In this document: piece by piece, positions 14,840 through 44,548 of the stretch
How positions within the stretch are numbered: the stretch's first letter is position 1
Layout of the letters: every line of letters begins with the position of its first letter
Assembly (NCBI GenBank): GCA_028712255.1
Contig: JAQTQJ010000003.1
Location: 71,173-135,172 of the forward strand
Direction: 5' to 3'
DNA length: 64,000 bases
Source: Candidatus Omnitrophota bacterium
GTDB taxonomy: Bacteria; Omnitrophota; Gorgyraeia; Gygaellales; Profunditerraquicolaceae
The notes under the pieces: generated by a model
What the model saw: the letters and a program-made list of their open reading frames with translations, nothing else
Told to the model about the DNA's origin: nothing
Databases searched by the model: none
Translations under genes and position numbers: made by a program

Positions 14840-14913
14840 GTGTCATTGCGAGCCCGAAGGGCGAAGCAATCTTTTAAGAGATTGCTTCGTCGCTTCGCTC
14901 CTCGCAATGACAC
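14840..14913. repeat. nested palindromic element (gtgtcattgcgag...cgaagcaatc/gattgcttcg...ctcgcaatgacac), intergenic copy
   Basis: Two concentric inverted repeats. Same family as copies at 37918, 38747, 40821, 44467, 58084 and 60201. Confidence 0.85.
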
Positions 14914-14951
14914 TAATAGCGTCTTCCAAGAGTTAAGCTGTTAACAAAAAA

Positions 14952-15728
14952 ATGAACCCAGTTCAAATAAAAGCTAAAATAATTTCCAATAAAAGATTTA
15001 AAGAAAATTACTGGCATTTGGAATTTGAGGCAGGAATAATTGCTAAAAATGCTTTACCGGGGCAGTTTGTAGATATTAAGGTTGGCGATGGATGCGAGCC
15101 CTTATTAAGAAGGCCTTTGAGTATTCATGGAGTAAAAGGTGTTAAAGTTAAACTTTTTTATGAAGTTATTGGAAGGGGCACCCAGATTTTATCCACAAGA
15201 AAACCAGGGGAGTTGTTGGATATTATTGGCCCGCTAGGCAATGGTTTTAATTATAGGCAGCAGGCTAAAGTATCTGAAATTAAAAATATCCTGGTTGCTG
15301 GGGGTATGGGGGTTGCTCCGCTGTTTTTCTTGGCTCAAAAAATAAAGGTAAGTAAGCCACTGGTTTTAATCGGAGCTAAAACAAAAAGGCAAATTCTCTG
15401 CGCACCGGAGTTTAAAAGGTTAGGTTGTATTTTAAAATTAGCTACCGATGATGGCTCAGCGGGATTTAAAGGCAAGGTTACAGATTTATTACAAATTATT
15501 TTAGAACAAGCCAAGCCGGTAAGATTATTTTCTTGCGGTCCAGGCCCAATGTTAAAAGCGGTAAGTGAAATTGCCAATGAAAATAAAATCCATACACAGC
15601 TTTCTTTGGAGGAGCATATGGCTTGCGGTATCGGTGCTTGTTTAGGTTGCGTTGTGGCTACTAAAGGCGGCTATAAAAGGGTTTGTAAGGATGGCCCGGT
15701 TTTTTCCAATGAGGAGTTGGCATGGTAA
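14952..15728 (+). CDS. pyrK: dihydroorotate dehydrogenase electron-transfer subunit
   Basis: FAD/NAD-binding fold and C-terminal Cys cluster CGIGACLGC. Confidence 0.85.
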   Translation: MNPVQIKAKIISNKRFKENYWHLEFEAGIIAKNALPGQFVDIKVGDGCEPLLRRPLSIHGVKGVKVKLFYEVIGRGTQILSTRKPGELLDIIGPLGNGFNYRQQAKVSEIKNILVAGGMGVAPLFFLAQKIKVSKPLVLIGAKTKRQILCAPEFKRLGCILKLATDDGSAGFKGKVTDLLQIILEQAKPVRLFSCGPGPMLKAVSEIANENKIHTQLSLEEHMACGIGACLGCVVATKGGYKRVCKDGPVFSNEELAW

Positions 15729-16657
15729 GGAAGGCTAAGCCAGATTTAAGCGTAAGTATTGGAAATCTTAAACTGAAGAATCCGGTAATGGTAGCCAGTG
15801 GTACTTTTGGTTACGCCGAGGAGTTTAGGGATTTTATTGATTTAAAAAAACTGGGTGCAATTGTTACTAAGACTATTACTATTAAGGGCCGCCAGGGTAA
15901 TCTTGCCCCTCGTACTTGCGAAACTCCTGCTGGTATGCTTAATTCTATAGGACTAGAGAATCCCGGTATAGATAAATTTATCAAAGAAAAACTTCCTTTT
16001 TTAAAGAAATTAGCCATTCCAATTATTGTAAGTATAGCTAGCGAAGAAAGCCCGGAGGAATTTGCTATTTTGGTTAAGCAGCTGGATTTGATAGATGAAG
16101 TTTCCGCAATTGAATTAAATATATCATGCCCTAACCTGCAAAAAGATAAACTTATTTCCCAGGATGCTTCCGATACTTTTAAATTAGTCAGCGTAGTACG
16201 TAAGATTACGCAAAAATGCCTAATTACTAAACTGTCCCCCAATGTCACTTCGATTTGTGAAATTGCGCAAAGTGCCAAAGATGCAGGAACTGACGCGTTA
16301 GCCTTAATTAATACGCTTGGTGGTATGAGTATTGACGTAAACAAGCGTATTCCAAAACTAGGCGCATGGGTGGGCGGTTTGAGCGGACCGGCAATCAGGC
16401 CTGTTGCGGTTAAGATGGTTTGGGAAGTATATAATAAAATTAAAATTCCCATTATCGGCATGGGTGGTATAATGGATACAGAAAGCGCTTTGGAGTTTTT
16501 TATTGCCGGCGCTACAGCTGTGAGCGTAGGAACCGCAAATTTTATTAATCCTCAAGCCAGCCTTGAAATTATCGGGGGGTTAAATCAGTACATGACAGAC
16601 AATGATATTGGGAATTTAAGCGGCATAATTGGCAGATTAAAAACATGCAAAAATTAA
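15722..16657 (+). CDS. pyrD: dihydroorotate dehydrogenase catalytic subunit (class 1B)
   Basis: TIM-barrel DHODH motifs; adjacent to pyrK. Confidence 0.85.
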   Translation: MVRKAKPDLSVSIGNLKLKNPVMVASGTFGYAEEFRDFIDLKKLGAIVTKTITIKGRQGNLAPRTCETPAGMLNSIGLENPGIDKFIKEKLPFLKKLAIPIIVSIASEESPEEFAILVKQLDLIDEVSAIELNISCPNLQKDKLISQDASDTFKLVSVVRKITQKCLITKLSPNVTSICEIAQSAKDAGTDALALINTLGGMSIDVNKRIPKLGAWVGGLSGPAIRPVAVKMVWEVYNKIKIPIIGMGGIMDTESALEFFIAGATAVSVGTANFINPQASLEIIGGLNQYMTDNDIGNLSGIIGRLKTCKN

Positions 16658-17331
16658 ACTCTCCTGAGATTATACTCGCCTTAGATGTAGACACTATAGA
16701 GAGTGCAAAAAATTTTGTAGACAAGCTTTATCCCAAAATTAAAACTTTTAAAGTTGGAAGCCAGCTTTTTACCGCCTATGGCCCGGAGATCATCCGTTTG
16801 CTGCATGAAAAAGGCGCTACGGTTTTTCTGGATCTTAAATATTTTGATATCCCCAACACTGTAGCCGGGGCTGTGGCTGCGGCAGTAGGCCTTAAAGTAA
16901 AAATGCTTACTTTGCACATTTGCGGCGGGGAAGAAATGATCAAGGCTGCCGTAGATTCGGCAAAAGCGCAAGCACAAGCGTTAAATATACCCAAACCTTT
17001 ATTGATCGGGGTAACGGTTTTAACCAGTAGCGCGGCAAAATCGAAAGACGTCTTAAAATTGGCACAAAAAGGAATAGATAGCGGTTTGGATGGTATAGTC
17101 TGTTCTGTTGTCGAGGCCGCAGCCCTGCGTAAGAAAATAAAAAAAGGATTTTTTATAATTACTCCCGGAATAAGGCTGGCTAAAGCTGTTACCGATGATC
17201 AAAAGCGCACAGCCACGGTAAAAGAAGCGGTAGATGCCGGAAGTGATTTTTTAGTTATCGGAAGGCCTATATTGAAAGCGGATAATCCAAAGGCACAAGT
17301 AGAAGAACTTTTGGGAGATATACATGGCTAA
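16645..17331 (+). CDS. pyrF: orotidine 5'-phosphate decarboxylase
   Basis: ILALDV...DLKYFDIPNTV, the OMP decarboxylase signature. Confidence 0.85.
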   Translation: MQKLNSPEIILALDVDTIESAKNFVDKLYPKIKTFKVGSQLFTAYGPEIIRLLHEKGATVFLDLKYFDIPNTVAGAVAAAVGLKVKMLTLHICGGEEMIKAAVDSAKAQAQALNIPKPLLIGVTVLTSSAAKSKDVLKLAQKGIDSGLDGIVCSVVEAAALRKKIKKGFFIITPGIRLAKAVTDDQKRTATVKEAVDAGSDFLVIGRPILKADNPKAQVEELLGDIHG

Positions 17332-17926
17332 AGAAATTAAGGACTTAATTGCAAAAATTCAGACAGAAGGTATAAAAATAGCTGAGGATAAAGCGAGAGA
17401 AATAGAGGCTAAGGCGCATGCCCAGGCGCAACTTATTATTGTTCAGGCGCATGCCCAGGCAAAAAAGATTATTAGTAGCGCGCAGGAGCAAGCAGATAAT
17501 ACTAAACGCTCTATGGAAACTTCTCTTGCTCAGGCGGGCCGCGATTTTCTGATTACATTGAGAGCCCGAATTAACGCGGTTCTTGATCGCCTAGTGGCAG
17601 AGAATATCCGTCAGAGCCTGACTCCGGAAGAGTTATTTAAGATCATTTTGGCATTAATTAAAGGGGCTTTGGGTAAGGAAGGTTTGCAGGTTATTGTCAC
17701 TCTCAGCCACGAAGACCGCAAGCATCTGGAGAAATTTTTCTTAAAAAAACTTATTGAAGAAACCAAGTCGCAGATTATGCTTAAATCCAGCGATGAGCTT
17801 GGTGCAGGGCTGCGCATTAGTTTTGATGCCGGGAAATCGCATTTTGATTTTTCCGATACCGCTTTAGCCGAATATATTACCGCAAATATCAGGCCTGAGT
17901 TAGGCCGGATACTAAAAACAGAATAA
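17324..17926 (+). CDS. V/A-type ATP synthase subunit E
   Basis: Ala/Gln/Lys-rich N-terminal coiled coil, and the first gene of the ATPase cluster. Confidence 0.7.
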   Translation: MAKEIKDLIAKIQTEGIKIAEDKAREIEAKAHAQAQLIIVQAHAQAKKIISSAQEQADNTKRSMETSLAQAGRDFLITLRARINAVLDRLVAENIRQSLTPEELFKIILALIKGALGKEGLQVIVTLSHEDRKHLEKFFLKKLIEETKSQIMLKSSDELGAGLRISFDAGKSHFDFSDTALAEYITANIRPELGRILKTE

Positions 17927-43326: not shown

Positions 43327-43336
43327 CATCTTACGG

Positions 43337-43738
43337 TTAAAACAAACTTTCTTTATTAGCGATAACTTTGGATATTTCTCTGCATAAGTTGGCCAGGGAA
43401 AACGGCTTGACGAAATAACCTACCGCGCCTAATTTGTAGGCCTTTTTTATATCAACTAAGTCGCCAAAACCGGAGATAATGATTATGGGAATGCCGTGGG
43501 TTTCCGGCTCGTTATTCAAAATCTCGCAGATTTCGAATCCTCCCAGATCCGGCATAAGCAGATCAAGCAATATAAGGTCGGGTTTGAATGATTTAATTGA
43601 ACTTAAGACTTTTTTAGGCTCTTTGCAGGTTAGTACTTCAAAACCACATTCGGATAGGGAGTCGTTCAGAAGGGATAATATTTCTTCCTGGTCATCGACA
43701 ACAAAAATCCGCTTTTTTGACATTTTGGTTTCTAGCAA
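43337..43738 (-). CDS. single-domain response regulator (CheY-like receiver)
   Basis: FVVDDQ...DLILLDLLMPDLGG...K. Confidence 0.8.
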   Translation of the reverse strand: MLETKMSKKRIFVVDDQEEILSLLNDSLSECGFEVLTCKEPKKVLSSIKSFKPDLILLDLLMPDLGGFEICEILNNEPETHGIPIIIISGFGDLVDIKKAYKLGAVGYFVKPFSLANLCREISKVIANKESLF

Positions 43739-43874
43739 TAAAACTTTCGTTTATGACTATTCAACCTTTAATTAATAGTATAGTTATATTTAGGGCAATA
43801 GTCAAAGAAAAACTTATTGCAGAAAGATAGTTTTCATTAGATAATAGGTTCTCAACTTATTTATTAGAGGATAT

Positions 43875-44432
43875 ATGAATACGGAAAAGATCGAAAAAGC
43901 AGTGCGTCAGATTCTTGAAGCAATTGGCGAAAATCCAAAAAGGAAGGATCTTTTGGAGACACCACGCCGGGTTGCCCAAATGTATGAAGAGATATTTTCA
44001 GGTATCAAACAGGACCCGGAGAAAGAGCTGGAAGTTATTCTGGACCAGAAACACCATGAGATTATTCTTTTACGCGGCATACCATTGTATTCTGTCTGTG
44101 AACATCATCTCCTGCCTTTTCTTGGCAGGGCAAATATTGCGTATATCCCCAAGAACGGAAGAGTGACCGGGTTAAGTAAACTTGCCAGGGTAGTGGATAT
44201 TTTAGCGCGCCGGCCACAAGTGCAGGAAAGATTAACTACGCAGATTGCTGAGATTGTAATGAGTAAGTTAAAACCGTTAGGAGTAATGGTGGTTATCGAG
44301 GCGGAGCATCTTTGTATGTCTATGCGCGGGGTAAGAAAACCCGGAACGATGACAGTAACTAGTGCAGTGCGCGGGATCTTTAAGGAGAATGAGAAGACTC
44401 GTTCTGAAGCGCTTGCTTTGATGCGGCAATAA
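43875..44432 (+). CDS. folE: GTP cyclohydrolase I
   Basis: [10 protein letters not shown] active-site motif. Confidence 0.9.
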
Positions 44433-44466
44433 GAAGAGGTAAACTATCAAGTAAGGCAACAGTTTG

Positions 44467-44548
44467 GTGTCATTGCGACCCTGAGCGAAGCGAAGGGGAA
44501 GCAATCTCTTTTAGATTGCTTCGTCGCTGTCGCTCCTCGCAATGACAC
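44467..44548. repeat. nested palindromic element, intergenic copy
   Basis: gtgtcattgcgacc...gaagcaatctc...gattgcttcg...ctcgcaatgacac. Confidence 0.85.

Follow-up and report, generated by a model that had tools for sequence, protein, structure and literature searches.

The nine short palindromic elements dispersed through the 64-kb stretch of Omnitrophota DNA analysed here (the window) are probably CGTC-tagged REP hairpins, a class now called NTS/SRM (Ssn-related motifs), arranged mostly as head-out inverted dimers and representing Ssn cassettes devoid of their gene. The evidence suggests that their cognate protein is not a transposase but a single-strand nuclease of the GIY-YIG type, ~95 aa long and belonging to the Ssn family. 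The repeating unit is a hairpin of 24-44 nt (GTC-ATTGC...GCAAT-C), which makes up half of the 56-91 bp element that an earlier note on this DNA had taken for the repeat.

Unit anatomy and element inventory

From 5' to 3', each unit opens with an unpaired head, (G)TGTC; the basal stem ATTGC/GCAAT follows, interrupted by a variable distal mini-hairpin, and a C forms the tail. Three parts are conserved: the unpaired (T/C)GTC head, the AT with which the basal stem opens, and the C with which the unpaired tail opens. Both the GTC head and the C tail are present in every intact window unit. The tgtcat/atgaca ends previously read as terminal inverted repeats combine this head with the opening stem bases of two inverted units, and the "variable spacers" are small hairpins, independent of one another. 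Head-out inverted dimers account for seven of the nine elements; the other two are an internally deleted dimer and a single unit, the only element with an overall strand:

14840-14913: head-out inverted dimer, units 14842-14871 (+) and 14880-14911 (-); in a gap of 135 nt, with a PEMT-like methyltransferase ORF (14121-14816) on one side and a DHOD-B Fe-S subunit ORF (14952-15728) on the other
33739-33807: variant dimer with basal stem ATTCT/AGAAT, units 33740-33770 (+) and 33783-33807 (-); between a PAC2 ORF (32673-33689) and a HAD ORF (33864-34520)
37918-38000: dimer, units 37920-37953 (+) and 37963-37998 (-); between a lysine-2,3-aminomutase-like ORF (36668-37855) and a YchF-C ORF (38041-38742)
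38747-38829: dimer, units 38749-38780 (+, one stem mismatch) and 38792-38827 (-); occupies the whole YchF-C/PurH gap
40427-40484: NTS-like dimer, units 40428-40451 (+, GTCATTCCCACGAAAGTGGGAATC) and 40460-40483 (-, GTCATCCCCGCGGAAGCGGGGATC); within the loop of a terminator-like GGGGACGGTTCT palindrome
40821-40911: dimer in frame within folC (ORF 40524-41957), residues 100-130, VSFPG...GLAMT; left unit partly decayed
44467-44548: dimer, units 44469-44506 (+) and 44514-44546 (-); between GTP cyclohydrolase I (43875-44432) and a PKD protein (44566-45609)
58084-58139: centre-deleted dimer (inner arms and loop gone), in frame within a histidine kinase ORF (57229-58659)
60201-60236, minus strand (the GTCAT strand): single unit, in frame within a DUF2341 protein ORF (59500-62496)

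Six elements lie in short gaps separating co-directional genes. The dimer at 33739-33807 is a sister type belonging to the same superfamily as the main-type units, and that at 40427-40484, with stems ATTCCCAC/GTGGGAAT and ATCCCCGC/GCGGGGAT, is another; the latter also gave a weak Rfam match to Wolbachia WsnRNA46 (E 0.1).

All nine intervals given by the earlier note hold the sequences it ascribed to them. The outer arm, GTGTCATTGCGAG, occurs 13 times with at most two mismatches against 0.78 expected from shuffles, every time within a listed copy, and the inner arm, CGAAGCAATC, occurs 16 times with at most one mismatch against 3.6 expected, all ten exact matches and one single-mismatch match falling inside listed copies. 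The 13-nt outer arms at 14840, 37918, 38747 and 44467 are near-perfect, seven of the eight having no mismatch or one. The description of dispersed, independently placed short palindromes with that architecture is borne out. Similarity between window copies stops at the element borders and the flanks are unrelated, so the copies are independent short elements and not pieces of one longer duplicated region. The sole flank likeness between copies is a different palindrome family that adjoins two of them.

Folding of the dimers as single-stranded DNA gives energies of -19 to -32 kcal/mol and z-scores between -5 and -11 (-32 kcal/mol and -11.4 for 14840-14913), and single main-type units fold weakly under nearest-neighbour DNA parameters. 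The basal stem is Watson-Crick paired in 334 of 358 distinct units, and 24 of the 48 non-majority units show double compensation, including ATCGC/GCGAT in 15 and ACTGC/GCAGT in 7. The basal stem is under selection for base pairing. Interiors are diverse, with 105 distinct sequences among 146 pattern matches, and many form a hairpin whose triloop, read on the GTCAT strand, is G-N-A.

Association with ssn genes and distribution among bacteria

At two genome loci, L075 and L048, exact units border GIY-YIG ORFs of ~95 aa (Pfam PF01541, E 2.7e-15 and 2.2e-13). Among 80 metagenome loci encoding a 95-aa Ssn-like clade, a forward unit was found within 90 nt upstream of the gene in 40, a reverse unit within 100 nt downstream in 57, and units on both sides in 34, the cassette order being unit - ssn - inverted unit. 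This clade is 44% identical (E 7e-17) to a Neisseria gonorrhoeae gene bordered by the CGTCATTCCCGC...GGGAATC hairpins known as NTS. Units are thus linked to ssn genes in other genomes, and since the same unit flanks those genes, the window dimers look like the cassette without its gene. Neither the 64-kb window nor the ~45 kb of sequence examined from syntenic relatives encodes an Ssn homologue.

Ssn, a GIY-YIG nuclease of ~95 aa with a single domain, cleaves its target a few nucleotides 5' of the head (Chenal 2025, PMC11893778). In Neisseria and Wolbachia it binds only the GTCAT strand of the units, in single-stranded form, and does not bind RNA; GTC, the three bases 5' of the palindrome, matters for cleavage, and the C just 3' of it for binding (PMC11893778). 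The window units have in common with NTS/SRM the frame (C/T)GTC-ATT...AAT-C with these GTC and C determinants, the occurrence as hairpin repeats in many copies across phyla, and the flanking, by exact copies, of a ~95-aa GIY-YIG gene homologous to the NTS-flanked Neisseria gene. They differ in that none matches the published SRM search pattern literally (one fails at the last flank position only) and that the window has no ssn gene; also, ssn cassettes with window-type units are heads-out, whereas the Neisseria locus is heads-in. In-frame copies within genes, which the window contains, are not discussed in PMC11893778.

The CGTC-tagged REP superfamily was described by Di Nocera, De Gregorio and Rocco (2013, PMC3733652). 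Its members include dRS3 of Neisseria and, from Rickettsia conorii, RPE-6 and RPE-4; that paper equates RPEs with CGTC-1 and CGTC-4 and remarks on the unusual loop length of Bradyrhizobium CGTC-1. As characterised there, these repeats have a CGTC/TGTC head, a stem beginning with AT and a C-rich tail, are mostly dimers, lie 3' of ORFs between unidirectional genes (and within genes in several species), and have no transposase association. The window units resemble them in the unpaired head, the A-T stem start, the unpaired tail starting with C, the prevalence of inverted dimers foldable as one long hairpin, the location downstream of ORFs between unidirectional genes, the in-frame location of some copies and the lack of a flanking transposase. 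The Omnitrophota host differs, that phylum being unmentioned in the text consulted, and so does the main-type structure, a 5-bp basal stem that leads through an internal loop to a distal hairpin of variable sequence, against the described 8-9 bp stem and 4-5 nt loop, a form shown in the window only by the units at 40427-40484.

An exact 21-base pattern of the right half was searched against genomes and matched at least 120 loci, a lower bound, in many phyla. The matches listed include Alpha-, Delta- and Gammaproteobacteria, Chloroflexota, Cyanobacteria, Bacteroidota, Planctomycetota, Patescibacteria, Omnitrophota and others, with isolates and complete genomes among them, and outside the window units also occur singly and in arrays. 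The family is neither new nor lineage-specific. Four points were not found in PMC3733652 and PMC11893778, namely an Omnitrophota host, units that escape the published SRM pattern, gain and loss between close relatives, and conservation of an element in folC far above that of synonymous sites.

Under the Ssn interpretation, the window dimers would relate to the ssn cassette as a MITE or REPIN does to its autonomous element, and the cognate Ssn would be encoded in the host genome outside the window. The conserved parts of the unit may be maintained by Ssn binding or cleavage, or by recombination among copies, and a head-out dimer would offer one cleavable unit on whichever strand turns single-stranded. 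A copying mechanism is missing from this scheme because Ssn is a hydrolytic nuclease that is not known to transfer strands.

Copies within genes and turnover among relatives

Three elements lie in frame within intact ORFs, those for FolC, the histidine kinase and the DUF2341 protein; the earlier note had overlooked this. The element at 58084-58139 encodes kinase residues 286-304 (ASLRG...PRNDT) and splits the HisKA_3 domain; with these 19 residues removed, the kinase again matches HisKA_3 over its full length (profile 1-68), at 29.6 instead of 24.6 bits. That at 60201-60236 encodes DUF2341 protein residues 234-246 (QIASSPAAFRNDT). Protein loops tolerate in-frame units. Rickettsia palindromic elements (RPE), attributed to Ogata et al. 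2000 and 2002, are reportedly palindromic repeats in frame within functional genes. By that description the two are alike in adding 13-31 residues at loops with the ORF left open, and they differ in stem sequence and in host, here free-living or epibiotic and not an obligate intracellular alphaproteobacterium.

The folC copy is common to four genomes, the window and the Omnitrophota relatives L202, L203 and L204, and is missing in L205 and most 444-aa orthologues. The left arms of the L202, L203 and L204 copies share 91-97% identity and the right arms of L202 and L203 are identical (32/32), while third positions of conserved four-fold codons in folC are just 43-58% identical. Element DNA within folC is thus far better conserved than synonymous sites.

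Intergenic copies are gained and lost between close Omnitrophota relatives. Three window dimers are missing at orthologous sites of L204, a relative with 82% identity in folC; the turnover is therefore recent. The gap orthologous to 33739-33807 holds a main-type dimer in L203 and is empty, at 3 nt, in L204. The 37918-38000 dimer is missing from the corresponding gap of L203, L204 and L205; the 38747-38829 site is empty in L204, where the YchF-C and PurH genes overlap (TAATG); and the L204 gap orthologous to 44467-44548 is 21 nt long and empty. The 40427-40484 dimer is shared with L202, and the GGGGACGGTTCT palindrome is uninterrupted in L203 and L204.

Alternative explanations

It is rather unlikely that the elements act primarily as RNA-level 3'-end hairpins, stabilising or processing mRNA or attenuating read-through, with a secondary Ssn link. 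Placement of six elements just 3' of stop codons of co-directional genes fits that role, strong hairpins are also expected in RNA by analogy with the single-stranded DNA folds, and Di Nocera 2013 (PMC3733652) argues for transcription and an RNA-level action of many REPs. However, no U-tract follows the elements, no Rfam family matches, three copies lie within translated ORFs, Ssn does not bind RNA (PMC11893778), and the conserved GTC head and C tail stay unpaired and are specific to one strand, as suits a protein that recognises a single strand of DNA. An RNA role is compatible with the Ssn interpretation, not exclusive of it. It is quite unlikely that the copies are neutral, decaying remnants of an active Ssn cassette once present in the lineage and then lost. 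The absence of an ssn gene from the window, the loss of the centre at 58084, the half element at 60201 and the folC copy, the most decayed of four orthologues, favour such an origin, against which stand the near-perfect outer arms of the four main-type intergenic dimers, the three dimers missing from L204 and the conservation of the folC arms. The decayed or truncated folC, kinase and DUF2341 copies could be fossils.

A classical MITE, an IS deletion derivative with terminal inverted repeats, a DDE transposase and target-site duplications, is scarcely credible. The 56-91 bp size, inverted ends and dispersal suit it, but no direct repeat flanks any window copy and no target-site duplication is visible, the "termini" belong to units that fold on themselves and are met singly and in arrays as well, internal sequence varies between copies with pairing potential retained, and transposase association is lacking. 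Of the earlier MITE-like label, the non-autonomous character holds, MITE- or REPIN-like in this respect, and a cut-and-paste transposon does not. Very improbable, and largely refuted, is mobilisation as REPINs, REP dimers moved in trans by the RAYT (Y1 HUH transposase) at 45675-46163. A Y1_Tnp gene is present in the window, and REPIN/RAYT systems are similar in their hairpin unit, common inverted dimer and single-copy gene flanked by units. They differ in their GTAG head and Y1 HUH partner: the palindrome on the borders of the window gene is another one, GTTATCCACAG(G/A)GTAGGGGA..., with the GTAG head typical of RAYT-associated REPs, whereas window units (GTCATTGCGAG-type hairpins) carry CGTC/TGTC heads. 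Moreover, ~800 kb around 146 units gave one weak RAYT-like match only (29% identity), and Di Nocera 2013 (PMC3733652) found CGTC units beside no gene for a tyrosine transposase. The earlier note had rightly set its elements apart from the repeats of the local RAYT, and that GTAG-tagged REPIN/RAYT system forms a separate family in the window at 45625-46213.

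Anatomy and genomic placement of the elements

The sequences that the earlier note had described for nine copies of a nested-palindrome family were found at all nine intervals. With up to two mismatches allowed, the 13-nt outer arm GTGTCATTGCGAG matches the window 13 times against 0.78 expected, and all 13 matches fall inside the listed copies; the 10-nt inner arm matches 16 times against 3.6 expected, with every exact match inside a listed copy. When each element was compared by BLAST, together with 150 nt of flank, to the other copies, similarity ended at the element borders, the sole exception being a different palindrome that chances to adjoin two copies. 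The refuting case named in the note, parts of one duplicated region, thus fails, and these are independent short elements. Folded as single-stranded DNA, they reach -19 to -32 kcal/mol, with z-scores of -5 to -11.

Each half-element, here called a unit, consists of an unpaired GTC head, a basal stem and a C tail. A scan for GTC, a 5-nt stem, 4-50 nt, the complementary stem and C recovered 13 exact units, and 2 further units carry one stem mismatch. A relaxed scan permitting one stem mismatch gave 48 matches against 76 in shuffled sequence and was dominated by noise, so exact-stem matches alone were used. A possible relic at 42940 (GTCATTGCG) was set aside, as it appears by eye to be ordinary MnmE GTPase coding sequence. 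The window holds seven dimers, one deleted dimer and one monomer, and the GTC heads point outward in all seven inverted dimers:

14840-14913, inverted head-out dimer
33739-33807, inverted head-out dimer with ATTCT/AGAAT stem
37918-38000, inverted head-out dimer
38747-38829, inverted head-out dimer
40427-40484, inverted head-out dimer, NTS-like (resembling the Neisseria repeat introduced below)
40821-40911, inverted head-out dimer
44467-44548, inverted head-out dimer
58084-58139, dimer lacking the inner arms and loop
60201-60236, single unit

The main-type unit reads (G)TGTC-ATTGC-GAG-[variable small hairpin]-(C)GAA-GCAAT-C, and its small hairpin varies both between the halves of a dimer and from copy to copy. 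The architecture given in the earlier note holds; what it called variable spacers are these independent small hairpins. The 40427 element consists of two uninterrupted 8-bp stems with 4-nt loops, GAAA and GGAA, and folds as two side-by-side hairpins. Stems of intact units are ATTGC...GCAAT-C, ATTCT...AGAAT-C, ATTCCCAC...GTGGGAAT-C or ATCCCCGC...GCGGGGAT-C. The head is TGTC in 15 of 17 units and CGTC in the other two, at 33783 (-) and 58084 (+). GTC lies directly 5', and C directly 3', of the palindrome in all 15 intact units; the unpaired head and tail are conserved.

Nearly all long ORFs of the window are on the + strand, and the intergenic gaps are very short. Six elements directly follow a stop codon in short gaps between co-directional genes, and three lie in frame within intact ORFs:

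FolC, residues 100-130
Histidine kinase, residues 286-304 (19 residues)
DUF2341 protein, residues 234-246

Aligned with Thermotoga FolC (PDB 1o5z), the window protein carries an excess of about 41 residues from query position 94 to 138; the solved protein has two residues in this stretch. The FolC ORF is 100% identical to an NCBI protein from a Candidatus Omnitrophica MAG, encoded on a 137-kb contig. Removal of the 19 residues from the histidine kinase extends its HisKA_3 match from half of the profile (positions 1-32, 24.6 bits) to the full profile (1-68, 29.6 bits). The DUF2341 match extends across the insert, and its score is the same without it. The inserted peptides (SLRG..., ...LAMT, ...RNDT) are read from the arms in frames free of stop codons; the reverse arm's third frame, which reads SQ-stop, is unused in the in-frame copies. 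Protein loops tolerate copies of the element.

Membership in the CGTC-tagged REP and SRM repeat class and association with Ssn-like genes

The exact outer-arm sequence retrieved only unrelated primers from the literature. A query with the sister-type stem GTCATTCCCGCG led to the description of Ssn, a GIY-YIG single-strand DNA nuclease (Chenal et al. 2025, PMC11893778). In Neisseria, the repeat that Ssn recognizes, NTS (CGTCATTCCCGCGMAVGCGGGAATCYRG), includes dRS3, and NTS-like "Ssn-related motifs" (SRM) are found in many phyla and flank ssnA (PMC11893778). The product of ssnA is a single-domain GIY-YIG protein of 94 aa, which binds the hairpin as ssDNA only, on one strand only, and cuts a few nucleotides upstream; cleavage depends most on the three bases 5' of the palindrome and binding on the C just 3' of it (PMC11893778). 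Published work places binding on the GTCAT strand and the cut 5' of the head; in Neisseria, this reduces the integration of transforming DNA that bears the repeat.

The superfamily of CGTC-tagged REPs, with which the window elements are compared here, was defined by Di Nocera et al. (2013, PMC3733652). In it, a unit has a CGTC or TGTC (or CCTC) head, a stem of 8-9 bp that starts with A-T, a loop of 4-5 nt and a short tail starting with C. The authors describe the units as mainly dimers that follow ORFs where the neighbouring genes are unidirectional or convergent, and as intragenic in several species; they count Neisseria dRS3 and Rickettsia RPE-6 and RPE-4 as members, note loops of different length in the Bradyrhizobium CGTC-1 units, and report that no dedicated transposase was found (PMC3733652).

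The window units share the head, the A-T start and the C tail with the CGTC-REPs, and the copies are likewise mostly dimers, with the same placement in unidirectional gaps and some intragenic examples. Both units of 40427-40484 match the 8-bp stem and 4-nt loop, whereas in the main type the basal stem has 5 bp and is followed by an internal loop and then a variable distal hairpin. The GTC and C determinants of Ssn action are present in all intact window units. The published SRM pattern, HGTCWYN(0-2)YYVSBRHN(0-5)WNVSBRGN(0-2)RNCYNB, matches no unit, and its sole match in the window is an unrelated site at 60806-60838; aligned by hand, unit 40460-40483 (-) departs from it at the last flank position only. 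We conclude that the elements are members of the known CGTC-tagged REP/SRM class, of which they are an unusually clear Omnitrophota example, and to which they extend the range of the repeats.

The family is thus not new, and reporting it as a new MITE would be unwarranted. The comparison with MITEs in the earlier note is apt in that the elements are short, dispersed and non-autonomous, but TIR/TSD features and evidence of a transposase are lacking: unlike MITEs, the copies are flanked by no direct repeats that could represent target-site duplications, and no transposase is associated with them.

Rfam, searched over the whole window, returned four tRNAs only above the gathering threshold, and no relevant family at permissive thresholds. 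The best sub-threshold match there, on 40417-40494, was to the Wolbachia sRNA family WsnRNA46, at 24.3 bits (E 0.1) where 65.3 would be required; a Wolbachia CGTC/SRM repeat may underlie that family.

Beyond the window, the exact 21-base pattern of the right half, GATTGCTTCG N5-35 TCGCAATGACA, was found at at least 120 loci in contigs representing one genome per species. The matches listed come from Alpha-, Delta-, Gamma- and Epsilonproteobacteria, Chloroflexota, Cyanobacteria, Bacteroidota, Planctomycetota, Gemmatimonadota, Patescibacteria, Omnitrophota, Bacillota and others, and include isolates or complete genomes of Bradyrhizobium, Mucilaginibacter, Hymenobacter, Chryseobacterium, Helicobacter rodentium and Calothrix. 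Unit heads in the other phyla are CGTC or TGTC. Among the matches listed, an inverted partner lies within 110 nt of 89 of 146 units, and the pattern-free interior takes 105 different sequences, the longer of which are mostly small hairpins; on the GTCAT strand, G-N-A triloops are common in them. In Chloroflexus sp. SKYG63 (two loci) and C. islandicus (one locus), units stand in arrays, every 50-150 nt, rather than as isolated dimers.

Pairing was assessed with a pattern in which two basal-stem positions were left free on each side. The basal stem is paired in 334 of 358 distinct units; both sides are changed in 24 of the 48 non-majority units (ATCGC/GCGAT 15, ACTGC/GCAGT 7), and single-sided changes occur only 1-4 times per combination. 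Together, these counts show that base pairing in the basal stem is under selection.

Two loci fetched solely for carrying the unit, L075 and L048, each contain a GIY-YIG ORF of about 95 aa (PF01541, E 2.7e-15 and 2.2e-13, respectively) bordered by exact units. Across 80 metagenome loci of this Ssn-like clade, a forward unit lies at most 90 nt upstream of the gene in 40, a reverse unit at most 100 nt downstream in 57, and both are present in 34; the stop codon often abuts GATTGC. The order of the cassette is head-unit-tail, gene, tail-unit-head, and it looks like the window dimer carrying a gene in its loop. The unit type is thereby linked, through exact sequence matches, to a highly conserved Ssn-like clade. 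The Ssn-like protein is 44% identical (E 7e-17) to the product of a Neisseria gonorrhoeae gene bordered by CGTCATTCCCGC...GGGAATC hairpins; the heads face inward at the Neisseria locus and outward in the cassettes described here. NCBIfam holds no model specific to small GIY-YIG proteins.

Among the best 120 matches to the Ssn-like protein (P0121-P0240), most are 69-81% identical to the query, and they come from Bacillota, Dehalococcoidia (Chloroflexota), Cyanobacteria, Desulfobacteraceae (Desulfobacterota), WOR-3 and KSB1. Such high identity across phyla points to horizontal transfer of the clade. Carriage by phages is unsupported, as viral contigs yielded just 25 distant relatives at 37-53% identity. 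PLSDB has 33 records with Ssn-like relatives, mostly megaplasmids or chromids. One Neisseria gonorrhoeae "plasmid" of 2.17 Mb in PLSDB is evidently the chromosome (NZ_CP119142.1); in its locus at 1881319-1882376, the longest ORF across the ssnA homologue is 71 codons from a TTG start, and the gene may be 5'-disrupted in this strain. The GGGACGGTTCT palindrome was also tried as a marker of Omnitrophota among the metagenome ssn loci; its one match (L180), on a high-GC proteobacterial contig, was a false lead. That contig carries an alternating array of units (2140-2500) immediately downstream of its ssn-like gene. No Ssn homologue was found in the 64-kb window or in four syntenic loci of related Omnitrophota (L202-L205).

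Turnover among relatives and the copy in folC

Copy content was compared with L202-L205; the folC nucleotide identity to the window, measured for L202-L204, is 72-83%.

Content of gene gaps in the window and in the syntenic relatives whose loci cover each gap
YchF to PurH: window, dimer; L203, GGGGACGGTTCT palindrome; L205, half of the GGGGACGGTTCT palindrome; L204, genes overlap, empty
GTP cyclohydrolase to PKD: window, dimer; L204 (sole relative covered), 21 nt, empty
Aminomutase to YchF: window, dimer; L203, L204 and L205, no dimer
PurH to FolC: window, NTS-like dimer in palindrome loop; L202, same dimer; L203 and L204, palindrome intact; L205, 3 nt, empty
PAC2 to HAD: window, ATTCT-type dimer; L203, ATTGC-type dimer; L204, 3 nt, empty

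The window and L203 have homologous flanks in the PAC2 to HAD gap. None of the filled sites, in the window or its relatives, has direct repeats on its flanks. These sequence comparisons show that copies were gained and lost recently.

The window, L202, L203 and L204 carry the in-frame dimer of folC at an identical codon position; L205 lacks it. Among L202, L203 and L204 the left arms of the element are 91-97% identical, and the right arms of L202 and L203 are identical (32/32). In the same comparison, four-fold third positions of conserved codons in the folC background are 43-58% identical, and all sites 71-79%. The most decayed copy is that of the window. In the 120 closest FolC proteins, the loop at the insertion point is 11-16 residues long in 95 and longer than 20 residues in 22; a signature peptide of the repeat class occurs in 17 of these 22 long loops, with several frames and stem types represented (SLRG...LAMT, SLRG...PRNDG, HPEA...LRMT). 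Since the peptide loop is itself poorly conserved, the conservation of the element DNA is either at the nucleic-acid level or due to homogenisation by other copies. A Logan assembly of the same organism begins 168 nt before folC, immediately downstream of the palindromes in the gap preceding the gene. Two more sites of FolC orthologues, at alignment columns of about 463-480 and 533-563 and at residues of about 378-383 of the window protein, also hold variable in-frame inserts, among them SA..GGSASGG and one of 31 residues in P0058. These inserts suggest that genes of Omnitrophota receive in-frame insertions of further repeat families.

How such copies could arise may be considered in terms of Ssn. 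A cognate nuclease would be encoded elsewhere in the genome, and a head-out dimer would present one cleavable unit on either strand, with predicted cuts just outside both element ends, on opposite strands. Copies would arise or be replaced via repair or recombination rather than transposase-type strand transfer. We tentatively raise the possibility, which we regard as rather unlikely, that head-out SRM dimers represent, in non-autonomous form, a still uncharacterised class of mobile elements whose sole protein is a GIY-YIG ssDNA nuclease. Repair set off by Ssn, or gene conversion, would then make, replace and homogenise the copies, with no part for a transposase. This reading would explain the 91-97% identity of element DNA within the essential folC while synonymous sites are near saturation, the different stem types at one site in sister genomes, and the filling of the same folC loop in about one-seventh of orthologues. 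If true, it would also offer a possible mechanism behind the in-frame Rickettsia palindromic elements, a long-standing puzzle. Intergenic copies may additionally act as RNA hairpins.

We regard three results as noteworthy: the gap in the SRM pattern, the head-out cassette of a conserved Ssn-like clade, and the excess conservation within folC. The published pattern misses a very widespread unit type, GTCATTGCGAG...GAAGCAATC, so that pattern-based censuses undercount the family. The folC copy is a clean natural experiment, present in some genomes and absent from others, with DNA conserved far beyond neutral expectation, and could be used to test selection against concerted evolution as well as the route by which hairpins enter genes.

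Neighbouring repeat families

The RAYT gene (45675-46163, -) encodes a Y1_Tnp protein and is flanked on both sides by GTAG-headed palindromes, GTTATCCACAG(G/A)GTAGGGGA... (GTTATCCACAGGGTAGGGGACGTTTAAACGTCCCCTAC...), the whole forming a REPtron at 45625-46213. These palindromes recur at about 11590-11650, 24860-24920 and 59334-59391, and both superfamilies of Di Nocera et al. (2013) thus stand side by side in the window. Unlike a REPIN/RAYT system, the units studied here are headed by TGTC or CGTC rather than GTAG, and the local RAYT is bordered by the separate GTAG family; the earlier note was right to distinguish the two. RAYT was accordingly rejected as the mobiliser of the CGTC units. Two further copies come after tRNA-Arg and tRNA-Asp, and RAYT is missing between the PKD and Mg-chelatase genes in L204.

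A second palindrome family, (AAA)GGGGACGGTTCTC/GAGAACCGTCCCC(TT), occurs 14 times against 0.5 expected:

7479-7512, palindrome
21513-21566, palindrome
23967-24000, palindrome
26438-26494, palindrome
47906-47955, palindrome
62574-62620, palindrome
37868, half copy
40403, half copy
28799-28858, weaker palindrome

Members usually come directly after genes and are often followed by T-rich sequence, and on these grounds the family looks like a terminator. It is found at orthologous intergenic positions in L203, L204 and L205, and one such palindrome, in the window and in L202, has the NTS-like dimer inserted in its loop. Two other intergenic palindromes, at 57150-57223 and 51388-51430 (CGAAACAGTTTCCCG..., TTTCCCGATTAACCTGGAAAC...), have the motif GTTTCC/GGAAAC in common.
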